Positions 2,696 through 33,871 of a stretch of 39,173 bases of DNA are shown in pieces. Numbering within the stretch: position 1 is the stretch's first letter; each line of letters starts with the position of its first letter. A program made the position numbers and the translations under genes. The notes under the pieces were generated by a model. That model made no database searches, had not been told where the DNA came from, and was given only the letters and a program-made list of their open reading frames with translations. The stretch is from a virus (taxonomy: Duplodnaviria; Heunggongvirae; Uroviricota; Caudoviricetes), in the IMG/VR virus record IMGVR_UViG_2563366802_000014. The stretch is one strand, 5' to 3'.

Positions 2696-3086
2696 CGTCT
2701 TTTCTCCCCGGAATTAACTCGCGTGGATTATCGGAACGGTGATAGAGCCAGATGCCAATACGCACGGCGACAATTGCTGACACGAATGCGCCTGCAGAAA
2801 AAACAATCCCTTTTTCAAAAGAGTCCTGCGTGATGGTAGGGATCAGGCTGGCTATGCCGATAAGAATTGATGCTGCTGGTTTGTAAAAGAGAAGGCCGCA
2901 AAGAAAGCTGATCATCGACAGGAGCACCCGGCGACGGATGGGGTACTCTACTGCAGAGGTAACAAAAATTACCGCCCCAGCCAAAGCCCCTAAAGCAACC
3001 TCCGGAGGGACACCTGCAATAACCGCAGCAAGAGAACTAACACTAAGCCACTGATTTGAAGTTTCATTGGTTAGTTGGAATGACAT
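2682..3086 (-). CDS. Membrane protein, putative holin
   Basis: 134 aa with about 4 hydrophobic segments and charged C-terminus; first gene of the lysis cassette by position. Confidence 0.5.
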   Translation of the reverse strand: MSFQLTNETSNQWLSVSSLAAVIAGVPPEVALGALAGAVIFVTSAVEYPIRRRVLLSMISFLCGLLFYKPAASILIGIASLIPTITQDSFEKGIVFSAGAFVSAIVAVRIGIWLYHRSDNPRELIPGRKDDGNA

Positions 3087-3158
3087 AACGAAACCCGTTT
3101 ATTTGCAAACACCCTGCTTCAGGAAAAGTATACCGCGCAACAACACACCATTTACGGT

Positions 3159-5621
3159 TCAATTCCCTGTTAATTGCAAAACTTGCTCTTCCAGCTTTTT
3201 AACCCTGCGTCTCATCATCGCAGATTCCAGAATCAGAGCCTCTTCATAACGGATACCGTAACATTCACCAGCCTCGACGGCTTCGCGTACCAGAACCTTT
3301 GTCTGTATAAGTGGGTAAACTCCTGCAGAATGCTCTTCTTCCGTCACATCCCTGTATTCTGCCGGGGTCTCATTCCACTTGTCATAACAGATAAATGCCA
3401 GTCGTGACACATCTATGCCTTCATTCTGAAATACACTGATAACATGCTGCGCAACTGCACCAAAGTGCCATCTTGCTCCGTCTTTACCTTTCACTTCGAT
3501 CCTGTCAAGGTACTGGTATGAAACCCATTCCACTCTTTCCCATGCGTCCAGTATTTTCTCATCAATAACCTCTGGAGCAGTCTTGAAACGCGCATCGGAC
3601 AGCACCGTAAACGCTGACTGGGTAAATCCCCCCGACCATGCACGACCAGCCAACCCAAGAGAATAAGTATTCGTTGTCGATGGTGTCATGGCTGAATCAG
3701 AAAACTGTATATATTCTGAATTTCCAGTAGATATTCGAATATTTCCATTTATTAGCGACATAGTGCCTTTAGTATTATCACTATTGAATAATTTCAATTG
3801 CGAACTTATACCGCCTCCCACAGCCAGAGATACATCGCCTTCAGCAAGCATTCTGAATTTATCTGCAGAAACAAGCGTCTGGTTAGCAAGGTTAAAATAT
3901 TTAACCCACCATTCAAAACGCCCTGACATAGTCCCAACGTACTGACCAAGCGCAGGGACGTGAACAACATTGCTATTTGTAGTGCCGTCTATACTGGAAA
4001 TACCAGTCACCGCTGATGCAGAACTCAGAATATTATTTCTGTCACCCGGATGTTTAATTTCAACAAAGTTCCTGATACACCCTTCCTCGAAGGTAACCAC
4101 GCCGGAAGAACTATACATGGGGAATATTGACGCATAATTACTGCGTGCAGCATCTAAGAAACGAATGGTTGTAGATGTCTGCAGATCTCCTGATTCATTT
4201 TTCCCATCACACCCAGTCATTAGAATATTACTGGCAATATTATTATTTCCCTGAACGGTGACGCCGTGCGCCTGCTTTGCGTCCGATTCAGAGTAATCAA
4301 CCAGCACATCCGAAATCAGGTTACCAGTCCCCTTGCCAACAACTACTGCGGCGTATTTTGGGTTGTTAGCCATTACACTGCTAATGATATTATTCGTTGG
4401 GGCAGTTTCCGTCTCAGTTCCATTGTAAACAACGTGCTGACACTCTTCACCAATAACATTGCTGACAATGTTATATTTTGCTGCTGTTTTAAGTTCCACT
4501 GCACCAAACTGAGGATAATTTCTGGCTATCACACCATCAATTAGCGTATTTTGCGATGAATCAAAAAGCACACAACCTGCTTTTTTATTATTTGCGAACC
4601 CTAAATACTCTCCTCTTATATCTCTAACAATGTAACCTGACGGAATACCATTATTCGGATAAGCGATCAAGCTAAATCCTGTTCCTCGCGTATTTGTAAA
4701 TCTGATATTTTTAACCGATACATCATGGCCACCTGAAAATGACACCTGGTGTCCCTGCACACTATCATCTGATTTATTTCCCATAATTGTTAGCGTACTA
4801 AGCATGCCACCATCGGGCATGTTAAAAACCAGATGATTACCATCTCTGTCATACTGTTTTATCGTTCCCCCACCTGTTCCGTACAAGCCACAACGTGAAA
4901 GAGAAACTAAAGATGTATTGAATACCCCTTCCGGAACAAAAACACTGCTAAACGAATGTAATGATTTTGTAAAAGCATCCTTGTTATCATTTAAGATTCC
5001 ATTTTGAGCTCCAAAATCCTTAATGCTGACACCATCACGCATCTTATCCTGGAACGTTCTGTATACCGCTCCAGAACCATACTGAATAAACCAACCAAAA
5101 CCACCAATAACTCCGGCGATTGCAGCATCGACATAATTACGCATTGAGCGATTATTTACAGCGTCCTGCTCAAGTGATGGATCGGCAAGGTTAGATATTC
5201 TGTTTTGCTTTGCATCGTAATATTTTGCAAGCAAAGATGGTTTCATCAATGCACGTCTGAACCACCCAAAACATCGCTGGATCAGCATCGTCAGGTAGTC
5301 AAATGCATCCTCATGAACTTCGGGGAAAAATTTTCCCTGATTGCGAAGATCAGTCTCCTGCACCACATCAAGCACACGCTCTATCGTGATTCGCCAGCCA
5401 GCAGCAAGCGGCGACGGAAGAACCACTGCACCGCCACTATAAGTTCCCGCCCCTGTTACCGTATAACCAGCATCCAGCACTAGTTTTGTAACGTTACCGT
5501 TAAGGTCAGACACCTGAACAACCAGGTCGGATTTTTTGAAAATACGGAAGGTATACGGAAATGATGTCGTAACGCCGTTACCTGTGTATTCGTTGTGGTC
5601 AACTTCGGTTGAGACCGTCAT
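3159..5621 (-). CDS. Tailspike / tail fiber, probable polysaccharide depolymerase with C-terminal S74-type intramolecular chaperone domain
   Basis: 820 aa; N-terminal particle-binding-like segment; central Gly/Asn-rich repeats suggestive of beta-helix; C-terminal motif LSDARFKTAPE matching the S-D-x-R-x-K autoproteolytic chaperone signature; RBS GGAG upstream. Confidence 0.75.
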   Translation of the reverse strand: MTVSTEVDHNEYTGNGVTTSFPYTFRIFKKSDLVVQVSDLNGNVTKLVLDAGYTVTGAGTYSGGAVVLPSPLAAGWRITIERVLDVVQETDLRNQGKFFPEVHEDAFDYLTMLIQRCFGWFRRALMKPSLLAKYYDAKQNRISNLADPSLEQDAVNNRSMRNYVDAAIAGVIGGFGWFIQYGSGAVYRTFQDKMRDGVSIKDFGAQNGILNDNKDAFTKSLHSFSSVFVPEGVFNTSLVSLSRCGLYGTGGGTIKQYDRDGNHLVFNMPDGGMLSTLTIMGNKSDDSVQGHQVSFSGGHDVSVKNIRFTNTRGTGFSLIAYPNNGIPSGYIVRDIRGEYLGFANNKKAGCVLFDSSQNTLIDGVIARNYPQFGAVELKTAAKYNIVSNVIGEECQHVVYNGTETETAPTNNIISSVMANNPKYAAVVVGKGTGNLISDVLVDYSESDAKQAHGVTVQGNNNIASNILMTGCDGKNESGDLQTSTTIRFLDAARSNYASIFPMYSSSGVVTFEEGCIRNFVEIKHPGDRNNILSSASAVTGISSIDGTTNSNVVHVPALGQYVGTMSGRFEWWVKYFNLANQTLVSADKFRMLAEGDVSLAVGGGISSQLKLFNSDNTKGTMSLINGNIRISTGNSEYIQFSDSAMTPSTTNTYSLGLAGRAWSGGFTQSAFTVLSDARFKTAPEVIDEKILDAWERVEWVSYQYLDRIEVKGKDGARWHFGAVAQHVISVFQNEGIDVSRLAFICYDKWNETPAEYRDVTEEEHSAGVYPLIQTKVLVREAVEAGECYGIRYEEALILESAMMRRRVKKLEEQVLQLTGN

Positions 5622-5725
5622 GTTAAATCTCCAGATAGTCGCAGCACCCGTTGCGCCGCATATCTGGTTATTCTATTACCCAAAAAACCATATATGGATA
5701 GAAAGACTGTGAATATGAATAGATA

Positions 5726-5740
5726 TTACCTTTCAGGTAA
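5726..5740. promoter_or_regulatory. Operator-like palindrome TTACCtttcaGGTAA
   Basis: Perfect TTACC-N5-GGTAA inverted repeat about 40 bp upstream of the LexA box. Confidence 0.6.
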
Positions 5741-5777
5741 TTTTCAAAACGTGCTGGATAGCAAACAAATTATTTGC

Positions 5778-5797
5778 TACTGTATAAATATACAGTT
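5778..5797. promoter_or_regulatory. LexA (SOS) box TACTGTATAAATATACAGTT
   Basis: CTGT-N8-ACAG core at 5780-5795 with AT-rich spacer, close match to the enterobacterial LexA consensus, about 20 bp upstream of the 5818 start codon. Confidence 0.8.
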
Positions 5798-5817
5798 ATT
5801 GCATGGAGAAGATTAAG

Positions 5818-6075
5818 ATGCAGCAGTATCACTATCCACTGGAAGAGGGATTTACCGAAAGGATTCACACGCCGGGAGGCGTCAGGTCACTGGTGGAGGG
5901 ATCGCACTTGATGAAATTACTCCGGGATCTCGATAAGGATGGATTTAATGTCGATGGCCCACTTGCCGAACTGACTGCACTGATTAACTACGTCACCAGC
6001 TCACAGATGTCTATGCGGGATCTGCAAACACATCTCGACTATTGTGCCGAACAATTACGAAAACAAACCAGATAA
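5818..6075 (+). CDS. Small antirepressor-domain protein, SOS-controlled candidate antirepressor
   Basis: 85 aa from ATG 5818 (RBS GGAG 9 nt upstream; alternative start 5803); clearly similar to the C-terminal part of the adjacent 231-aa Bro-N protein (shared pattern LLxxL..DG..V.G..AELT ... RD.QTH..Y); preceded by LexA box. Confidence 0.6.
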   Translation: MQQYHYPLEEGFTERIHTPGGVRSLVEGSHLMKLLRDLDKDGFNVDGPLAELTALINYVTSSQMSMRDLQTHLDYCAEQLRKQTR

Positions 6076-6106
6076 GGTTTGTAATTACCAAGTGGAGTGC
6101 TTATAT

Positions 6107-6121
6107 TTACCTTTGCGGTAA
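6107..6121. promoter_or_regulatory. Operator-like palindrome TTACCtttgcGGTAA
   Basis: Perfect copy of the motif, lying in the loop between 7-bp inverted repeats GGAGTGC / GCACTCC. Confidence 0.55.
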
Positions 6122-6212
6122 ATTTACATCGCACTCCTCTTGTGCCATAGTAATCGGGCACTGGCAAAATCCAGTGCCGGGATTGGCGTCCCGGATTACT
6201 AAAAGGCGCATT

Positions 6213-6233
6213 CACCGCGCAAGCGGTTTTTTT
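6213..6233 (+). terminator. Rho-independent terminator after the small antirepressor-domain gene
   Basis: CCGC-GCAA-GCGG hairpin followed by seven T; preceded by a compact multi-hairpin element at 6150-6199. Confidence 0.5.
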
Positions 6234-6390
6234 ATGCGTATAGCACGGCCACATTCGTATTATGGTGGGCTGTGTGGGGGCACCGAAAGGTGCGCCGGGT
6301 CCTTTTAGCCGGTTACGCCAACCCTGCACAGTTCACCACCAACCGATTGGCGTCGGTAGTGGTGATTAACCAGACTAAAAGGTAACCACT

Positions 6391-7086
6391 ATGACAGCTA
6401 CAAAAAGCACGTCCATTTTTTCTTTCGAATCTCAAGCCGATATACGGGTAATCGTCATTAATGGTGAGCCATGGTTTATCGCTTCAGATGTTTGTCGGGC
6501 TATAGGCATAGCAAACCATCGAGATGCTGTTCGAAAACTTGATGATGATGAGAAGGGCGTCGCTTCAACCGACACCCCTGGCGGTGAGCAAGAATCGATC
6601 ATTATCTCCGAGTCAGGCCTCTACACACTGATCCTCCGCTGCCGCGATGCGGTGACACCAGGCACTATCCCCTACCGCTTTCGCAAATGGGTTACAGGTG
6701 AGGTTCTTCCTCAGATCCGCCGCACCGGAAGTTACATTAAAAACTCGCTCCCGCAGGAAGAACGCATAAAGATGGTTGCCGACCAGGTAGCCAACGCCAC
6801 GGCGTCAGCAGTAATGCAGGCGATGAAGATAGAGAACAAAACCTACAGCGCCCCGCTGAAGCCCGGCTACCGCAGCCTGATTCACTCGCCGTCTGGTGTT
6901 CTCGGCCTGACGGAAAACTCACTGCTGATGAATCTGCTGAACCAGTTACAGGAAGACGGGCACGACGTATCGGGCGCGGCGGCGGAGCTGACCACCATGT
7001 TTTGCTACATCGTTGGTGTGAGCAAGTGCCTGCGTGATATCCAGACGCACGCGGAGTACATCAACGACAAGGCTGGGTTCTTCTGA
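6391..7086 (+). CDS. Antirepressor, Bro-N domain protein
   Basis: N-terminal segment FSFESQADIRVIVINGEPWFIASDVCRAIG matches the Bro-N / antirepressor domain; C-terminal domain paralogous to the 85-aa protein. Confidence 0.75.
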   Translation: MTATKSTSIFSFESQADIRVIVINGEPWFIASDVCRAIGIANHRDAVRKLDDDEKGVASTDTPGGEQESIIISESGLYTLILRCRDAVTPGTIPYRFRKWVTGEVLPQIRRTGSYIKNSLPQEERIKMVADQVANATASAVMQAMKIENKTYSAPLKPGYRSLIHSPSGVLGLTENSLLMNLLNQLQEDGHDVSGAAAELTTMFCYIVGVSKCLRDIQTHAEYINDKAGFF

Positions 7087-7153
7087 CGGGCGGCGGCACA
7101 GGGACGTGCCTTTAAAATAATCATTGGCGATGTGATGTAGATTCGCGTAATAT

Positions 7154-7168
7154 TACCTTACGGGTAAA
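7154..7168. promoter_or_regulatory. Operator-like palindrome TTACCttacgGGTAA
   Basis: Perfect copy about 20 bp upstream of a -10-like TATATT and the RBS GAGGTG of the 7206 gene. Confidence 0.6.
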
Positions 7169-7205
7169 CCCCGTTTAATGGCGTTTCTATATTATGAGGT
7201 GATGT

Positions 7206-7841
7206 ATGCCACAACAACTGCTGAATCCGGCAAAGGTTACTGAAGTTTTCGCTCATCTGAACGAAACTCCAGACAACCGCGCCCTGTATTCAGAGTTAGT
7301 GAACGGCAACGATGTCACATCTGATGTCAAAGGCGTTTCTCTGGCTCCTGGATACCGCGTTGTCCGTGTAGACGATCGTAAGAAAGGCGAGATTCCACAG
7401 GCGCACTTCGAACTGGCATTGATAAATGACCTCACCGAAGAGGTAGTGTATTACAATCGTGTCATTATCCAACCTGACAGCTATCTTAACTGCCGACCTG
7501 TCACGCAGATATTGGTATGGAGAACCCAGAAGCCTAAGCATCGTGCTGTGCTTCATGATTTCGCCGGCATCATCTTCATGAACTACCTCTTGGAACGGTA
7601 CGATATCATCGTGTCAGATCGCAACCAGACTCATGAAGGCATGTCGTTCTGGCAGGCTCGCATGTATGACGCACTGGAACTTGGCCTCCACCTCTATGGT
7701 TACGACATGATGACATGCGAGCTGATAGAGATGAATAACGAGGAAGAGCTTGAGAAAGGTGAAACCTGGTTGTGGGGTGATGCGGAAAACTTCCAAAACA
7801 GATTGGCCATAATTTCAAAGCATAAGCTGCCAATAAAATAG
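7206..7841 (+). CDS. Hypothetical protein (211 aa), accessory gene with own operator and terminator
   Basis: ORF from track; strong RBS GAGGTG; acidic soluble protein with no motif I recognise. Confidence 0.6.
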   Translation: MPQQLLNPAKVTEVFAHLNETPDNRALYSELVNGNDVTSDVKGVSLAPGYRVVRVDDRKKGEIPQAHFELALINDLTEEVVYYNRVIIQPDSYLNCRPVTQILVWRTQKPKHRAVLHDFAGIIFMNYLLERYDIIVSDRNQTHEGMSFWQARMYDALELGLHLYGYDMMTCELIEMNNEEELEKGETWLWGDAENFQNRLAIISKHKLPIK

Positions 7842-7847
7842 TTCTTT

Positions 7848-7872
7848 AAGCCCGCGCCGCGGGCTTTTTTGT
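7848..7872 (+). terminator. Rho-independent terminator
   Basis: GC-rich hairpin GCCCGCG..CGCGGGC followed by six T, just after the stop codon of the 7206..7841 gene. Confidence 0.7.
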
Positions 7873-8435: not shown

Positions 8436-10910
8436 TTATTGCGGAGTGACATCCTGAGGTCGCCACCAGTATGTCTGGTTAAACTCTTTCTTCGAACGTT
8501 GCTCCATTTTACGCAAATAGCCTGGTGAAAAATACTCCTGCATCTGGTTAAAGATCATGTGATCAAGAGCTGCCTTCAAGTACCAGAGATTCGCACCTGG
8601 CATCAGCCCTTTCCCAAGTTTCACCAGATCACCACCAGTCTGCTCGTTCTTCCCTTCCACAGCATTTAATGGTATGCCCTGAGCTATCTTCACTACGTCA
8701 TCAATCAGGCCAGCTACCGGGCCAAGCATCGACGCCAGCGCGCCGCTTCCGTACCTAGTGTGATCTGACAATAAAAAGTCACCGTAAAGGCCAAGACCAC
8801 CACCTTTCAGTAGAGCACCAAGCCAAAATTTAGCAGCATCTTCTCCTGTCATCTCGCGAGGATTACGACCAGACGCAAGGTCGTTAAGTTGCTGCGACAA
8901 AGCGCCAAGAATGGTCGTACTGGCAATAAACGTCGCAATATATGCCGCACGCCCACCAGCAGACGGCATACCCATAGCGCGTGACCAGTGACGCATAACC
9001 ACCGAGATAGGGAACGATTTAAACAGGAAAACACTTCTCGTTAATTCACCTTTCCATGTTCCACGCTGAATACCAGAACCGGTTATCAGTTGCTCACGTG
9101 CTCCCGGTGTAATAACAGCCATATCAACTTCTTCAGTTACGGCACCGAGCAGTTTACGCATTGCCTCAAATTTCACGCGTTCAGGCTCACCAAGATGTTT
9201 AACTGCTGAATCAGGGATACGCATAATGCTTTCCGGTGTCAGCATCGTATTATTACCGTTCCCCCAGTCCTCCTGTTGCGCCAGCTTCCATACGCTCCAG
9301 TCTGTGTCAGTAATCCCTTTGCTTTTCAGGATACGAAAATCAGAGTCATCGAGGCTACGAAGGTCTGGTGTCCGTGACACTACTTCTCCCAGGCTTCCCA
9401 TCATGGTTACGCCATAGGCGCGCTTGTGCGCATCTGACCATGCTGTAAGCCCACTGGCACGCATTACCGCCGTTGCTGCCCAACGAGACACTGACGGCCC
9501 CATATTATCCATCGCCCAGCGGTTAACGCTGCCAAGTAGAGATTCCATTGCCAGACCAGCGCGGCGCGCCCGCGCAAGTTCTGTACGGTTCGTTGGGTCC
9601 ATAGCTTCAAGCTGGTTGCGGAATAACTGGTTCATTGGAAGGTTGGTCACCTTCGCAGACAGATACATGGTTCCAAGATCAGAGAACGATGATAGCAACG
9701 CGGATCCGAGTCTGCTGGCAACCAGCCAGTTGCGGATATTGTCAGACCATCGCGCGATGTGCGGATTCGCTACAGGCTGTGTCTTTCCGGAAATAAAGTT
9801 GTACAGATTCTCTGTGTTGTTCGCCAGCCGCTCGACTTTACCGGTTTTACTCGGGTTAGCTGTTGCCGTTTCTGCCTTAACCTGATCAAGAAGGGAGCGG
9901 AAAACATGATCGGGGTTTGGACCATATGTTTCCACCAGAGCAATATCTTTACTGATACCTTCCAGGTGACCGACCATGATTTCCCATAGAGAGCGATCGC
10001 CATAAAGTTGTTGATATTGGAGATAGGAATCAGCATCTTTGAAATGTATCTGTCGTGATGCATTACCACGGTTAGCACGTGCGCCGGAAATTCGCATTCC
10101 GGTATCAGTAAGCTTATTCAGCCCACCAGTAGCGATCGTGTTATAAGCCTCTCCAAGAAATGCAGACAACTCGGCACCGTTCATCAGTTGTCCATCGGCT
10201 CGGGTATAATATTTGCGATCCAGCTTACCTATAACATCGTTAACCCACTTATCCTTTGATACCGCCCCAACCTTTTCCATAGAATGATGTTGAGGGATCC
10301 CCCAGTTTTCGAGATAGCCAATGTCCCCACCAGCATCATTAAACCGGCGGCGCAGCAGCTCTGTAACTTCTCTCCACGCCTTAGCACCTTTTCTTGCTTT
10401 AGCATTGCCAGTATTTTGCCCCCGCATTTCATATACCAGGTCACGTACGCCCGCTTCATCTTCAAACAGACCAAAAAAGCGAGGATCAACTGCTTCGAAT
10501 GCCTCCTGCAATTGACTCAATGCATAATCACGGGTGGCTTTTGTTCTGGATTCAACAGAGAGGAAATTAGATTTACCGTCTGCATTAAAAGCTATAGTAC
10601 GGTTAAGAGCGCCAAGTTTCCCATCAGCCCCTTGATAGCTATTGATAAATTTATCCAATCTCTGACGCGCGGCTATAGTGAGAGCCACACGACGTTTCTT
10701 TAATGCCGCTTCTCGCTGTAATTCTTCAGATGCCAATTGTGCTGCTCGATATAGCCGCTCTGATTCGGAAAGTTGTCGCCACGACATCGGGTCATCACGA
10801 GCAATGGAGCGCATATTTCGATAAATGCGGTCTTCAATGTTCTGTATTTCTCGCGCCGTTAACATGCGCTGCGCCGCCTGCTGAACCGCCTGTATACATT
10901 CCTGTCTCAT
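8436..10910 (-). CDS. Large internal virion / ejection protein (824 aa)
   Basis: Large ORF in the run of virion genes between the tail-tube-like genes and the tailspike; role inferred from size and position only. Confidence 0.55.
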   Translation of the reverse strand: MRQECIQAVQQAAQRMLTAREIQNIEDRIYRNMRSIARDDPMSWRQLSESERLYRAAQLASEELQREAALKKRRVALTIAARQRLDKFINSYQGADGKLGALNRTIAFNADGKSNFLSVESRTKATRDYALSQLQEAFEAVDPRFFGLFEDEAGVRDLVYEMRGQNTGNAKARKGAKAWREVTELLRRRFNDAGGDIGYLENWGIPQHHSMEKVGAVSKDKWVNDVIGKLDRKYYTRADGQLMNGAELSAFLGEAYNTIATGGLNKLTDTGMRISGARANRGNASRQIHFKDADSYLQYQQLYGDRSLWEIMVGHLEGISKDIALVETYGPNPDHVFRSLLDQVKAETATANPSKTGKVERLANNTENLYNFISGKTQPVANPHIARWSDNIRNWLVASRLGSALLSSFSDLGTMYLSAKVTNLPMNQLFRNQLEAMDPTNRTELARARRAGLAMESLLGSVNRWAMDNMGPSVSRWAATAVMRASGLTAWSDAHKRAYGVTMMGSLGEVVSRTPDLRSLDDSDFRILKSKGITDTDWSVWKLAQQEDWGNGNNTMLTPESIMRIPDSAVKHLGEPERVKFEAMRKLLGAVTEEVDMAVITPGAREQLITGSGIQRGTWKGELTRSVFLFKSFPISVVMRHWSRAMGMPSAGGRAAYIATFIASTTILGALSQQLNDLASGRNPREMTGEDAAKFWLGALLKGGGLGLYGDFLLSDHTRYGSGALASMLGPVAGLIDDVVKIAQGIPLNAVEGKNEQTGGDLVKLGKGLMPGANLWYLKAALDHMIFNQMQEYFSPGYLRKMEQRSKKEFNQTYWWRPQDVTPQ

Positions 10911-20039: not shown

Positions 20040-20477
20040 TTAACCAGTTACTTTTGAGCGGATCGGGTACGGCGTATTGGCATCAACATCCAGACTGATA
20101 CCCGCAGTGAATTTGCCGGCCGTTAGTGGGCCAGTTGCGACGGAGTAGTTAACACGCAGATATCGCTGAACACCGGCAGGCACCTTTGCAGAAACAACTC
20201 GTTTACCTGCTGCCAGGGCGGTCTTTGCCAGTGCGCCACTATCATAAATAGTGGTCCATGAGCTGTTATTCTCACTCGTCTGCAACTGGATGTTTACAGT
20301 TGCCTCACCACTTGCCGTGGCGGCTTCGTTAACCAGCACCCAAAACTCAAGCGGGTAACCCACACCGATATCGCGACGGTTTCCATCAATTGGACCGAGA
20401 TCGATTACGTCAGTAGAAGCCGCGGTATTCGTAACCGCCTGAGCTTCGGAGAACATCAACAGTTTGTCGGTGATCAT
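20040..20477 (-). CDS. Putative capsid decoration / cement protein (145 aa)
   Basis: Small gene directly downstream of the major capsid gene; role inferred from position. Confidence 0.4.
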   Translation of the reverse strand: MITDKLLMFSEAQAVTNTAASTDVIDLGPIDGNRRDIGVGYPLEFWVLVNEAATASGEATVNIQLQTSENNSSWTTIYDSGALAKTALAAGKRVVSAKVPAGVQRYLRVNYSVATGPLTAGKFTAGISLDVDANTPYPIRSKVTG

Positions 20478-20528
20478 CTTCTTTCTCCATTAGTGGGTCT
20501 GTTACGACCCACAGGTTAATAACAGGCG

Positions 20529-24511: not shown

Positions 24512-24526
24512 TTACCTTTAAGGTAA
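24512..24526. promoter_or_regulatory. Operator-like palindrome TTACCtttaaGGTAA next to a TTGACA -35-like hexamer
   Basis: Perfect copy; TTGACA at 24490-24495 on the plus strand. Confidence 0.55.
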
Positions 24527-24848: not shown

Positions 24849-24925
24849 GTGGCATTAGCTCAGTCGGACAGAGCAACCGCCTTCTAAGCGGTTGGTCGCA
24901 GGTTCGAATCCTGCATGCCACGCCA
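24849..24925 (+). tRNA. tRNA-Arg (anticodon UCU)
   Basis: Hand-folded cloverleaf: 7-bp acceptor stem GTGGCAT/ATGCCAC, D-arm GCTC..GAGC, anticodon stem ACCGC/GCGGT with loop CTTCTAA (anticodon TCT), T-arm GCAGG-TTCGAAT-CCTGC, discriminator G and encoded CCA. Confidence 0.85.
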
Positions 24926-27639: not shown

Positions 27640-27671
27640 AACCACCGTGGTAATAGTTACCGTTGTGGTAA
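27639..27671. promoter_or_regulatory. Two adjacent operator-like sites at the terminase small subunit start
   Basis: TaACCaccgtGGTAA (27639-27653, one mismatch) and perfect TTACCgttgtGGTAA (27657-27671), overlapping the start codon and 5' leader. Confidence 0.55.
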
Positions 27672-33286: not shown

Positions 33287-33871
33287 ATGAAAAGTATCCA
33301 GGACGTCCGCAGGCAAAATCTCAACGACTTGATCGACCGTGAATTCAATGGTGTTCAGACGCGGATGGCAGAAAAACTTGGAACTCAGGCAAATCTGGTA
33401 AACCGCTGGGCTCTTGGCAAGAAGGTTATCGGCGACCAGGTTGCGCGAAAAATTGAAGCTGCCGCCAATAAACCCCGTAACTGGCTTGATATCGATCGCT
33501 CGCTTTCTCAGGAAGGTTTTCAGCCTGTCGGCCCAAGCGATATTGGTCAGCTGGCAGCTCACAACCTGGAACGCTGGATGAGTGAAAGCCGCGACCTTTC
33601 AACTCAGGGAAAACTTCACCGCGCATCCGGCGTCGCCCAGGTGACAATAAGCCGCCTGTTAAACAATGAGGTCAGCGTTTCCATTTCCACCCTGGAGAAT
33701 GTTGCATCTGCATTCGGGCGTCACGGATATGAACTACTGATTCATCCGCATGACCCTGCAACTATCAACTATGACCGCTCGCGCTACGCATTGTTACCTG
33801 AAACAGAGAAGGCAAAGATCGAAAGTTACATTGAATTTGTCATCAACCAGAACGAAAAAAACAAACAATAA
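33287..33871 (+). CDS. Prophage repressor candidate, tandem-HTH protein without recognisable autocleavage domain
   Basis: N-terminal HTH (QTRMAEKLGTQANLVNRWALGKK) and a second HTH-like segment (ASGVAQVTISRLLNNEVSVSISTLENVASAFG); no Ala-Gly / Ser-Lys peptidase signature seen; divergent from Cro-like gene. Confidence 0.6.
   Translation: MKSIQDVRRQNLNDLIDREFNGVQTRMAEKLGTQANLVNRWALGKKVIGDQVARKIEAAANKPRNWLDIDRSLSQEGFQPVGPSDIGQLAAHNLERWMSESRDLSTQGKLHRASGVAQVTISRLLNNEVSVSISTLENVASAFGRHGYELLIHPHDPATINYDRSRYALLPETEKAKIESYIEFVINQNEKNKQ

Follow-up and report, generated by a model that had tools for sequence, protein, structure and literature searches.

How can a prophage whose repressor carries no self-cleavage domain respond to DNA damage, and which of its genes would carry the signal? 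The question is raised by positions 5726-7866 of IMG/VR record IMGVR_UViG_2563366802_000014, a stretch of tailed-phage DNA (Caudoviricetes) of 39,173 nucleotides that is called the window below. A first-pass annotation had placed a LexA box in front of a gene for an 85-amino-acid (aa) protein there and proposed that induction proceeds through a LexA-derepressed antirepressor. We consider it likely that a phiV10/epsilon15-like (Uetakevirus) Escherichia coli prophage has its rightward anti-immunity region here, with two antirepressors that share one domain and answer to different inputs. The first is the 85-aa Ant, whose gene lies behind the LexA box, and the second is a 231-aa Bro-N protein, whose gene lies behind two small RNAs, isrK and C4.

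Across 5600-7250, the window shared 95-98% identity with E. coli phages of the phiV10 type (genus Uetakevirus: ZX5, TL-2011b, phiV10, and the O157 typing phages), and this segment was present in 238 of 5426 complete E. coli genomes (about 4%). In the twelve genome records listed, the names under the match were only 'Bro-N domain-containing protein' or 'hypothetical protein'. On one side of the region lies the tailspike gene (minus strand, 3159-5621), on the other a large gene of the injection type (minus strand, 8436-10910), and in the Salmonella phage SPC32H the ant gene occupies the same slot between the tailspike and injection-protein genes. Within this phage group, phiV10 encodes an acetyltransferase that modifies the O antigen, according to PMC9782041.

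The LexA box, the small gene ant, and its presumed target

The features of the first module are as follows.

5726-5740, unstranded: Rep operator TTACCTTTCAGGTAA upstream of ant, a palindrome centred about -57 from the predicted start
5755-5783, plus strand: predicted ant promoter, read from the sequence, with -35 TGGATA (5755-5760), a 17-bp spacer, and -10 TACTGT (5778-5783)
5778-5797, unstranded: LexA box TACTGTATAAATATACAGTT, overlapping both the -10 of the ant promoter and its predicted start
5818-6075, plus strand: ant, encoding an 85-aa antirepressor, orthologue of SPC32H Ant (tblastn, PDB 5D50_E, phrog_450)
33287-33871, plus strand: rep, encoding a 194-aa repressor, the presumed target of Ant; homologue of SPC32H Rep, with helix-turn-helix (HTH) domains only

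The product of ant was 88% identical to that of SPC32H ant by tblastn (86% over the full alignment). It matched chain E of PDB 5D50 ('Anti-repressor protein'; SPC32H Ant, ~86 aa) with an E-value of 5.6e-47, residues 2-84 being aligned, and it matched the profile of the small-Ant family phrog_450, while NCBIfam gave no match for either the 85-aa or the 231-aa protein. A Shine-Dalgarno sequence, GGAG, stands at 5805-5808, and 85 aa is the right length for Ant because an upstream ATG (5803) was not kept in the Klebsiella relatives. When 50,697 phage records were searched by tblastn with Ant (E<=1e-3), 35 were returned, all of them from Escherichia, Salmonella, Klebsiella, or Enterobacter, and Gifsy, 186, Fels-2, and N15 were not among these 35. 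All Ant-positive records inspected were epsilon15-like phages or prophages. Ant and Rep occurred in essentially the same phage records (35 and 36, respectively), and the small Ant was found in every relative examined; in the ZX5 record it is labelled a hypothetical protein.

The presumed target, Rep, had two HTH regions in Pfam, YdaS-like at residues 21-61 and HTH_3 at 106-147, and no Peptidase_S24 match, hence no S24 autocleavage domain. The tandem-HTH repressor without an autocleavage signature that had been recognised in the first-pass annotation was thus borne out by Pfam. Rep aligned over its full length with SPC32H Rep (42% identity), matched PDB 5D50_A over residues 1-190 (E 4e-42) and the Rep C-terminal domain 5D4Z_A (E 4e-20), and was 100% identical to ORF21 of ZX5. 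For SPC32H, PMC9638917 describes Rep as a tetramer on palindromic DNA, which is broken when an Ant tetramer binds two Rep dimers. The C-terminal domain of Rep serves both tetramerisation and Ant binding (PMC9986798), and SPC32H is placed among the LexA-controlled antirepressor systems in a review (PMC7380047).

The near-consensus LexA box named in the first-pass annotation also held. TACTGTATAAATATACAGTT was the sole site in the window within three mismatches of the consensus TACTGTATATATATACAGTA; it had two mismatches, and none was expected (100 shuffles). Two further sites fitting the looser pattern CTGT-N8-ACAG, at 20499 and 25041, have GC-rich spacers and were not regarded as LexA boxes. 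The left half of the LexA box, TACTGT, stands 17 bp downstream of TGGATA, and we read TGGATA-17-TACTGT as the predicted ant promoter, whose -10 and start LexA would cover. In the consensus promoter scan, this promoter fell below the threshold.

The tailspike-ant intergenic region was aligned across eight phages, whose hosts fall into four genera (E. coli, Salmonella, Enterobacter, and Klebsiella). The intergenic DNA drifted around four kept elements, namely a block on the tailspike side, the TTACC/GGTAA half-sites, TGGATA, and the LexA box, the last being kept in all eight phages at a fixed distance from ant. Both promoter hexamers were kept in the E. coli, Salmonella, and Enterobacter phages around a divergent spacer, and the Klebsiella phages had near-matches (TGGAAA for TGGATA). 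The genomes of SPC32H and SPC32N differed at two positions only, and one of these changes ACAG to AAAG in the core of the LexA box upstream of ant, leaving the operator upstream of ant intact. The second difference is a C-to-T change early in the tailspike gene, at position 20147. LexA reportedly represses ant in SPC32H, where Rep is said to stay uncleaved on SOS induction, and the base change in the LexA box of SPC32N is said to give constitutive Ant and a lytic phage. If this phenotype holds, it would make LexA the dominant control of ant.

The palindrome TTACC-N5-GGTAA, for which joint control of ant by LexA and the phage repressor had been claimed as new, is a real and conserved site. The window held 10 exact copies, compared with 0.02 expected, and SPC32H likewise has ten copies in corresponding places. 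In the GenBank record of epsilon15, seven such sites are marked 'repressor; lysogeny', one of them upstream of gp19, the ant homologue; the operator before ant was therefore already annotated and is not new. At 5726, the half-sites were invariant in the eight phages and the central 5 bp variable. Operators stand on both sides of rep (33217, 33929, and 33991), and several copies overlap good promoters, such as the TTGACA-17 before 24512 and the TTGACA before 33991, beside rep. The operator at about -57 may give Rep a hand in controlling ant, although it lies outside the core promoter.

Some operators are paired exactly 62 bp apart, start to start, both in the window (30824/30886 and 33929/33991) and in SPC32H (33604/33666 and 35972/36034), which suggests that one Rep tetramer spans each pair. 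Single operators stand at ant, at isrK, at a 211-aa gene, at a tRNA gene, and at 27657. The tRNA gene, tRNA-Arg (anticodon TCT; 24849-24925, plus strand), is preceded by a consensus TTGACA promoter; the operator at 24512-24526 overlaps the -10 region of this promoter.

We consider it unlikely that the palindrome at 5726-5740 leaves ant alone and instead serves the divergent tailspike or late unit, or anchors looping by Rep. The site does lie in the 196 bp that separate the divergent tailspike gene (start at 5621) and ant, with a conserved block and an annotated integration host factor (IHF) site between it and the tailspike gene, the latter marked beside the operator in the epsilon15 record. 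Moreover, a leftward TTGAAA-16-TATCTA would span this operator in the window, and a Rep tetramer is able to bridge two palindromes, according to PMC9638917. However, the leftward hexamers were not kept in SPC32H, and on that ground the tailspike promoter that they would form was retained only as part of this alternative. In the eight phages, the operator kept its distance to the ant -35 and to the LexA box within 1-2 bp, and the other two operators of the region each stand at a rightward promoter. The conserved block itself, ATTCTATTACCCAAAAAACCATATATG (5668-5700), lies between the tailspike start and the operator, was kept in the eight phages, and includes a single TTACC half-site; control of the tailspike or late genes may be its role.

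The Bro-N protein with an Ant-like C-terminal domain

The second gene of interest is the following.

6391-7086, plus strand: putative second antirepressor, 231 aa, with Bro-N at aa 17-107 and an Ant-like C-terminal domain at aa 150-226 (Pfam, BLASTP, PDB)

The 231-aa protein had been called a Bro-N protein from the letters, and a profile search agreed, with Pfam PF02498 matching residues 17-107 (E 2e-21). Its C-terminal part had been aligned by eye with the small protein. By BLASTP, the 85-aa protein aligned with residues 150-223 without gaps, 32 of 74 residues being identical (43%, E 2e-16), which confirms the resemblance. The C-terminal 77 residues (150-226) matched 5D50_E (E 1e-13) and phrog_450 (E 4e-36). 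PADLOC returned no match for the 231-aa protein, and its AlphaFold single-sequence model had a mean predicted local distance difference test score (pLDDT) of 40.6, too low for fold comparison.

The same protein, 100% identical, is ORF4 of the phage vB_EcoP_ZX5 (ZX5), for which experimental results have been published (Li et al. 2022, PMC9782041). In that paper, overexpression of ORF4 reduced the prophage titre or lysogens from 10^9 to 10^6, about 1000-fold; overexpression of the repressor abolished free phage; and mitomycin C raised the yield of ZX5 lysogens from 10^7 to 10^9 plaque-forming units (PFU)/mL.

The order small Ant, isrK-C4, and Bro-N with an Ant-like C-terminus was also found in the Enterobacter phage Tyrion and the Klebsiella phages ST512-KPC3phi13.3 and Kp4865-1, whereas SPC32H, epsilon15, BUCT554, and BUCT711 had the small Ant only, without the isrK-C4-Bro-N cassette. 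In the Klebsiella relatives, the cargo between ant and the isrK cassette differed, one phage having two small open reading frames (ORFs; 2846-3304) and the other a 283-aa ORF on the minus strand (2969-3820), which marks this slot as a cargo hotspot. In an identity matrix, the small Ants and the Bro-N C-terminal domains formed two clades, with 57-99% identity within and 32-40% between them. With the clades this separate, the duplication or fusion is an old event, and the small gene did not arise by a recent truncation. A search with the C-terminal domain returned 25 proteins, many of them fragments and too few for a census of architectures; it did reveal a fusion of this domain clade to AntA/AntB, which points to domain shuffling.

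These data bear on the proposal that ant is a recently truncated copy of the Bro-N antirepressor gene, with a single promoter under joint repression by LexA and, at 5726-5740, the phage repressor. The paralogy of Ant and the Bro-N protein is real, and the operator and LexA box are both kept upstream of ant. However, the first-pass annotation, which had described the LexA-controlled gene as a truncated paralogue, had the direction wrong: the small Ant is there in all relatives examined, only an accessory cassette carries the Bro-N fusion, and the two forms belong to separate old clades. In addition, the Bro-N gene is under a predicted promoter, an operator, and RNA control of its own, as set out in the next section. 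Joint repression is also opposed by the operator, whose centre, at about -57, is 14 bp upstream of the -35, and by SPC32N, which has a point mutation in the LexA box and an intact operator. We therefore regard a truncated paralogue under joint repression as quite improbable, and among the rivals it fits the data least well.

The isrK-C4 leader and its targets

Between the two genes lie an isrK RNA and a C4 RNA, which were overlooked in the first-pass annotation. The features of this leader are as follows.

6107-6121, unstranded: Rep operator TTACCTTTGCGGTAA, abutting the isrK -35 and overlapping a second predicted promoter (TTGTAA at 6079, TATATT at 6107)
6123-6151, plus strand: predicted isrK promoter, TTTACA, 17 bp, TG-n-CATAGT, with a predicted start at about 6158 (promoter scan)
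6158-6233, plus strand: isrK / c4-a1b1 RNA (Rfam RF01394, 77.9 bits against a threshold of 50)
6183-6189 and 6199-6206, plus strand: isrK decoy sites a1, TTGGCGT, in an isrK loop, and b1, CTAAAAGG, respectively (complementarity to C4)
6214-6233, plus strand: isrK intrinsic terminator (terminator prediction)
6258-6343, plus strand: C4 antisense RNA (Rfam RF01695, 77.7 bits against a threshold of 45; fold)
6301-6308 and 6315-6321, plus strand: C4 pairing elements, loop b' CCTTTTAG and single-stranded a' ACGCCAA, respectively (fold)
6347-6353 and 6375-6382, plus strand: C4 targets in the leader of the Bro-N gene, a2 TTGGCGT and b2 CTAAAAGG, the latter in the Shine-Dalgarno region (exact complementarity)

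In phage P1, the immI region is laid out as a1b1, c4, and a2b2. In the window, the C4 loop CCUUUUAG was exactly complementary to CUAAAAGG in the Shine-Dalgarno region of the Bro-N gene (6375-6382) and again in isrK (6199-6206), and ACGCCAA of C4 was complementary to UUGGCGU at 6347-6353 and 6183-6189, so that the matches to the a and b elements were exact over 7 and 8 nt, respectively. The a'/a1/a2 and b'/b1/b2 elements covaried three ways across five loci, those of the window, Tyrion, the two Klebsiella phages, and a Shiga toxin (Stx) phage. The a element took the forms TTGGCGT, TTGGTCT, and TTGAGAC, and the b element the forms CTAAAAGG, CTACAAAGG, and GAAAAAGG, with one mismatch in the isrK copy of b in Tyrion.

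The predicted isrK promoter ends 7 nt before the isrK 5' end, and this block was kept in four epsilon15-like phages. The isrK operator was present at the same place in all four epsilon15-like carriers of the cassette and absent from the copy in the Stx phage, whose isrK also scores as RF03163 c4-a1b1 in Rfam. A common ancestry of the antirepressors that follow isrK-C4 was rejected, the one in the Stx phage being unrelated in sequence. With the operator absent and the antirepressor unrelated in the Stx phage, the isrK-C4 leader looks portable, plugged here into the Rep regulon. The terminator scan found no terminator between ant and isrK, and read-through from the ant promoter into the cassette is probable because none follows ant.

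An inverted repeat, GGAGTGC...GCACTCC (6093-6099 / 6131-6137), brackets the isrK operator and was not kept in Tyrion. An ATG in the 5' stem of C4, +105 from the isrK 5' end and at about the position of the Gifsy-1 orf45 start, opens a 35-aa ORF (6262-6369), whose end is 22 nt short of the Bro-N start codon. The C4 region of the window contains no icd gene, that is, no translationally coupled leader ORF of the P1 immI kind.

Downstream of the Bro-N gene, the rightward cluster ends with the following features.

7153-7167, unstranded: Rep operator TTACCTTACGGGTAA, immediately following a -10-like TAATAT and preceding the 211-aa gene
7206-7841, plus strand: 211-aa gene (phrog_1349), last of the rightward cluster, with the preceding operator as its own
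7848-7866, plus strand: strong terminator after the 211-aa gene (terminator prediction)

The 211-aa protein had no match in Pfam, NCBIfam, or PADLOC, and its gene was absent from phiV10 and SPC32H.

Two proposed inputs to one repressor, and related systems

In the two-tier mechanism that we propose, Rep would sit on its operators in the lysogen, and LexA, bound to the box over the ant -10 and start, would block the ant promoter. DNA damage would lead to self-cleavage of LexA, and the 85-aa Ant would be made. A tetramer of Ant would then bind the C-terminal domains of Rep, split the DNA-bound Rep tetramer into dimers, and clear the TTACC-N5-GGTAA operators, Rep itself remaining uncleaved. These steps, from the lysogen through the SOS response to the stripping of Rep by Ant, were shown for the SPC32H orthologues and are carried over to the window by analogy.

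Loss of Rep would open the promoters of isrK and of the 211-aa gene as well as the early promoters. The operator-flanked promoter would drive isrK, C4, and the Bro-N gene in turn, to which read-through from the ant promoter would probably add. By pairing with a2/b2, C4 would mask the Shine-Dalgarno region of the Bro-N gene and keep the gene untranslated, whereas a1/b1 of IsrK would titrate C4, so that IsrK and high transcript levels together would overcome the C4 block. The Bro-N protein with its Ant-like C-terminus would then be made and would reinforce the inactivation of Rep; in infection, it would bias the outcome towards lysis and lower lysogenisation. This RNA logic, shown in P1 and Gifsy-1, is applied to the window by analogy and is supported there by the covariation. 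The promoter positions, the ant read-through, and the role of the -57 operator we infer. More tentatively, the two paralogues, side by side and both in the Rep regulon, may both bind Rep, one sensing LexA and the other gated by C4/IsrK, and so form a self-reinforcing latch in which the first Ant frees the second module.

In the second tier, the Bro-N C-terminal domain is taken as a presumed Rep-binding domain. It might instead be no more than an oligomerisation scaffold or be tuned to other repressors; the protein would then serve to attack the immunity of related prophages resident in the cell, or to regulate some other target, and would not inactivate its own Rep as a second antirepressor. 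Its modest identity to the small Ants (given below) would fit such a role, as would the documented cross-talk of antirepressors between the heteroimmune Gifsy and Fels-1 prophages (PMC3121763), the name 'anti-immunity' given to the Bro-N gene in the phiV10 record, the fusion of the same domain to AntA/AntB elsewhere, and the unrelated antirepressors preceded by isrK-C4 cassettes in Stx phages. However, the identical ORF4, when overexpressed, cut the lysogeny of ZX5 itself by about three orders of magnitude (PMC9782041); the module bears the operator of its own phage in every epsilon15-like carrier; and from E. coli to Klebsiella phages the C-terminal domain has diverged (51% identity) roughly in step with Rep (45%). 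Considering both sides, we regard this alternative as unlikely.

Several observations weigh against the two-tier mechanism. The centre of the operator at 5726 is 14 bp upstream of the ant -35 and thus outside the core promoter. Between the E. coli and Salmonella phages, Ant was 86-88% identical and its presumed target Rep only 42%; going by these sequences, a conservation of Ant so far above that of Rep is odd for a tightly co-evolving pair. The Bro-N C-terminal domain was only 33-40% identical to the small Ants, and the residues common to both could serve tetramerisation, not contact with Rep. In phiV10 (2287-2966), the Bro-N gene is annotated as 194 aa and is followed by a 29-aa ORF, and its Ant-like C-terminal domain appears disrupted, so the second tier seems dispensable in view of this truncated gene. 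Finally, the ORF in the C4 stem was rejected as an orf45-like coupling ORF, being 35 aa in the window and 15 aa in Tyrion and the Klebsiella phages.

If both paralogues do bind Rep and form the latch described above, Bro-N antirepressors would have their repressor-specificity module in the variable C-terminal domain, with the solved homologue 5D50 as a template. The shared domain provides a testable, structure-anchored hypothesis for the role of the C-terminal halves of Bro-N antirepressors, and recognising the LexA-controlled Ant orthologue together with the isrK/C4 layer corrects the reading of induction in these prophages.

Among known systems, the closest is the Rep-Ant switch of SPC32H (Kim & Ryu 2013; Kim et al. 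2016; PDB 5D4Z, 5D50). The window shares with it an orthologous Ant, a full-length homologue of Rep without a cleavage domain, a LexA box over the ant promoter, the same operator half-sites, and the same layout of the tailspike and injection-protein genes. In SPC32H, however, ant stands alone, whereas in the window it is accompanied by isrK, C4, the Bro-N protein with its Ant-like domain, and the 211-aa gene, with operators of their own.

The isrK-orf45(STnc1160)-anrP locus of Gifsy-1 (Hershko-Shalev et al. 2016, PMC4825925) likewise has isrK with a terminator, a C4-like region, and then an antirepressor-like gene, and its IsrK is complementary to downstream RNA. There, terminator read-through yields an mRNA whose translation is activated by the short IsrK, giving the antirepressor-like AnrP, an inducer of the prophage (PMC4825925). 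Gifsy-1 also has a separate small antirepressor under LexA control, GfoA (PMC3121763). It differs in that, in the window, the two antirepressor genes are neighbours with a domain in common, C4 pairs with the Shine-Dalgarno sequence of the antirepressor gene itself, the orf45-type ORF is not conserved, and the promoter carries the operator of the resident repressor.

In the immI region (c4-icd-ant) of P1/P7, the a' and b' elements of C4 have complements on either side, a1/b1 upstream and a2/b2 downstream, the latter with b2 over a ribosome-binding site, and the promoter carries the operator of the primary repressor, as in the window. Since the window lacks icd, the target there is the ribosome-binding site of the antirepressor itself. 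The antirepressor C-terminus and the repressor of the window are unrelated to Ant and C1 of P1.

The first-pass annotation had likened the induction circuit to those of Gifsy-type prophages and of 186 Tum. Gifsy GfoA/GftA, 186 Tum, and N15 AntC do resemble Ant in that a small LexA-repressed protein inactivates a non-cleavable repressor by binding it (PMC3121763). Induction by a LexA-derepressed antirepressor is thus strongly supported, by the orthology of Ant and Rep to those of SPC32H and not through the families that had been named: tblastn against the 50,697 phage records detected no sequence relation of these proteins to the Ant of the window, and no Pfam or PHROG family shared with the GfoA or Tum families was found. 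By its authors' account, SPC32H Ant is also said to be structurally distinct from GfoA/GftA, Tum, and AntC.

Experimental data are also available for ZX5 (Li et al. 2022, PMC9782041), whose ORF4 and ORF21 are the 231-aa protein and Rep of the window. In the passages searched, that study treats the Bro-N protein as the antirepressor of the phage and leaves the small Ant, the LexA box, and the isrK/C4 RNAs unmentioned, and the term 'LexA' has zero occurrences in the paper (PMC9782041).

The locus does not overturn current understanding: the circuit of SOS, LexA, Ant, and Rep is already known in mechanism and structure from SPC32H, the operator is in the public record, and control by isrK/C4 is of a characterised kind. 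What it adds, and what is apparently undescribed in the searchable literature, is the domain link between the SPC32H-type Ant and the Bro-N C-terminus and the adjacency of two differently wired paralogues.

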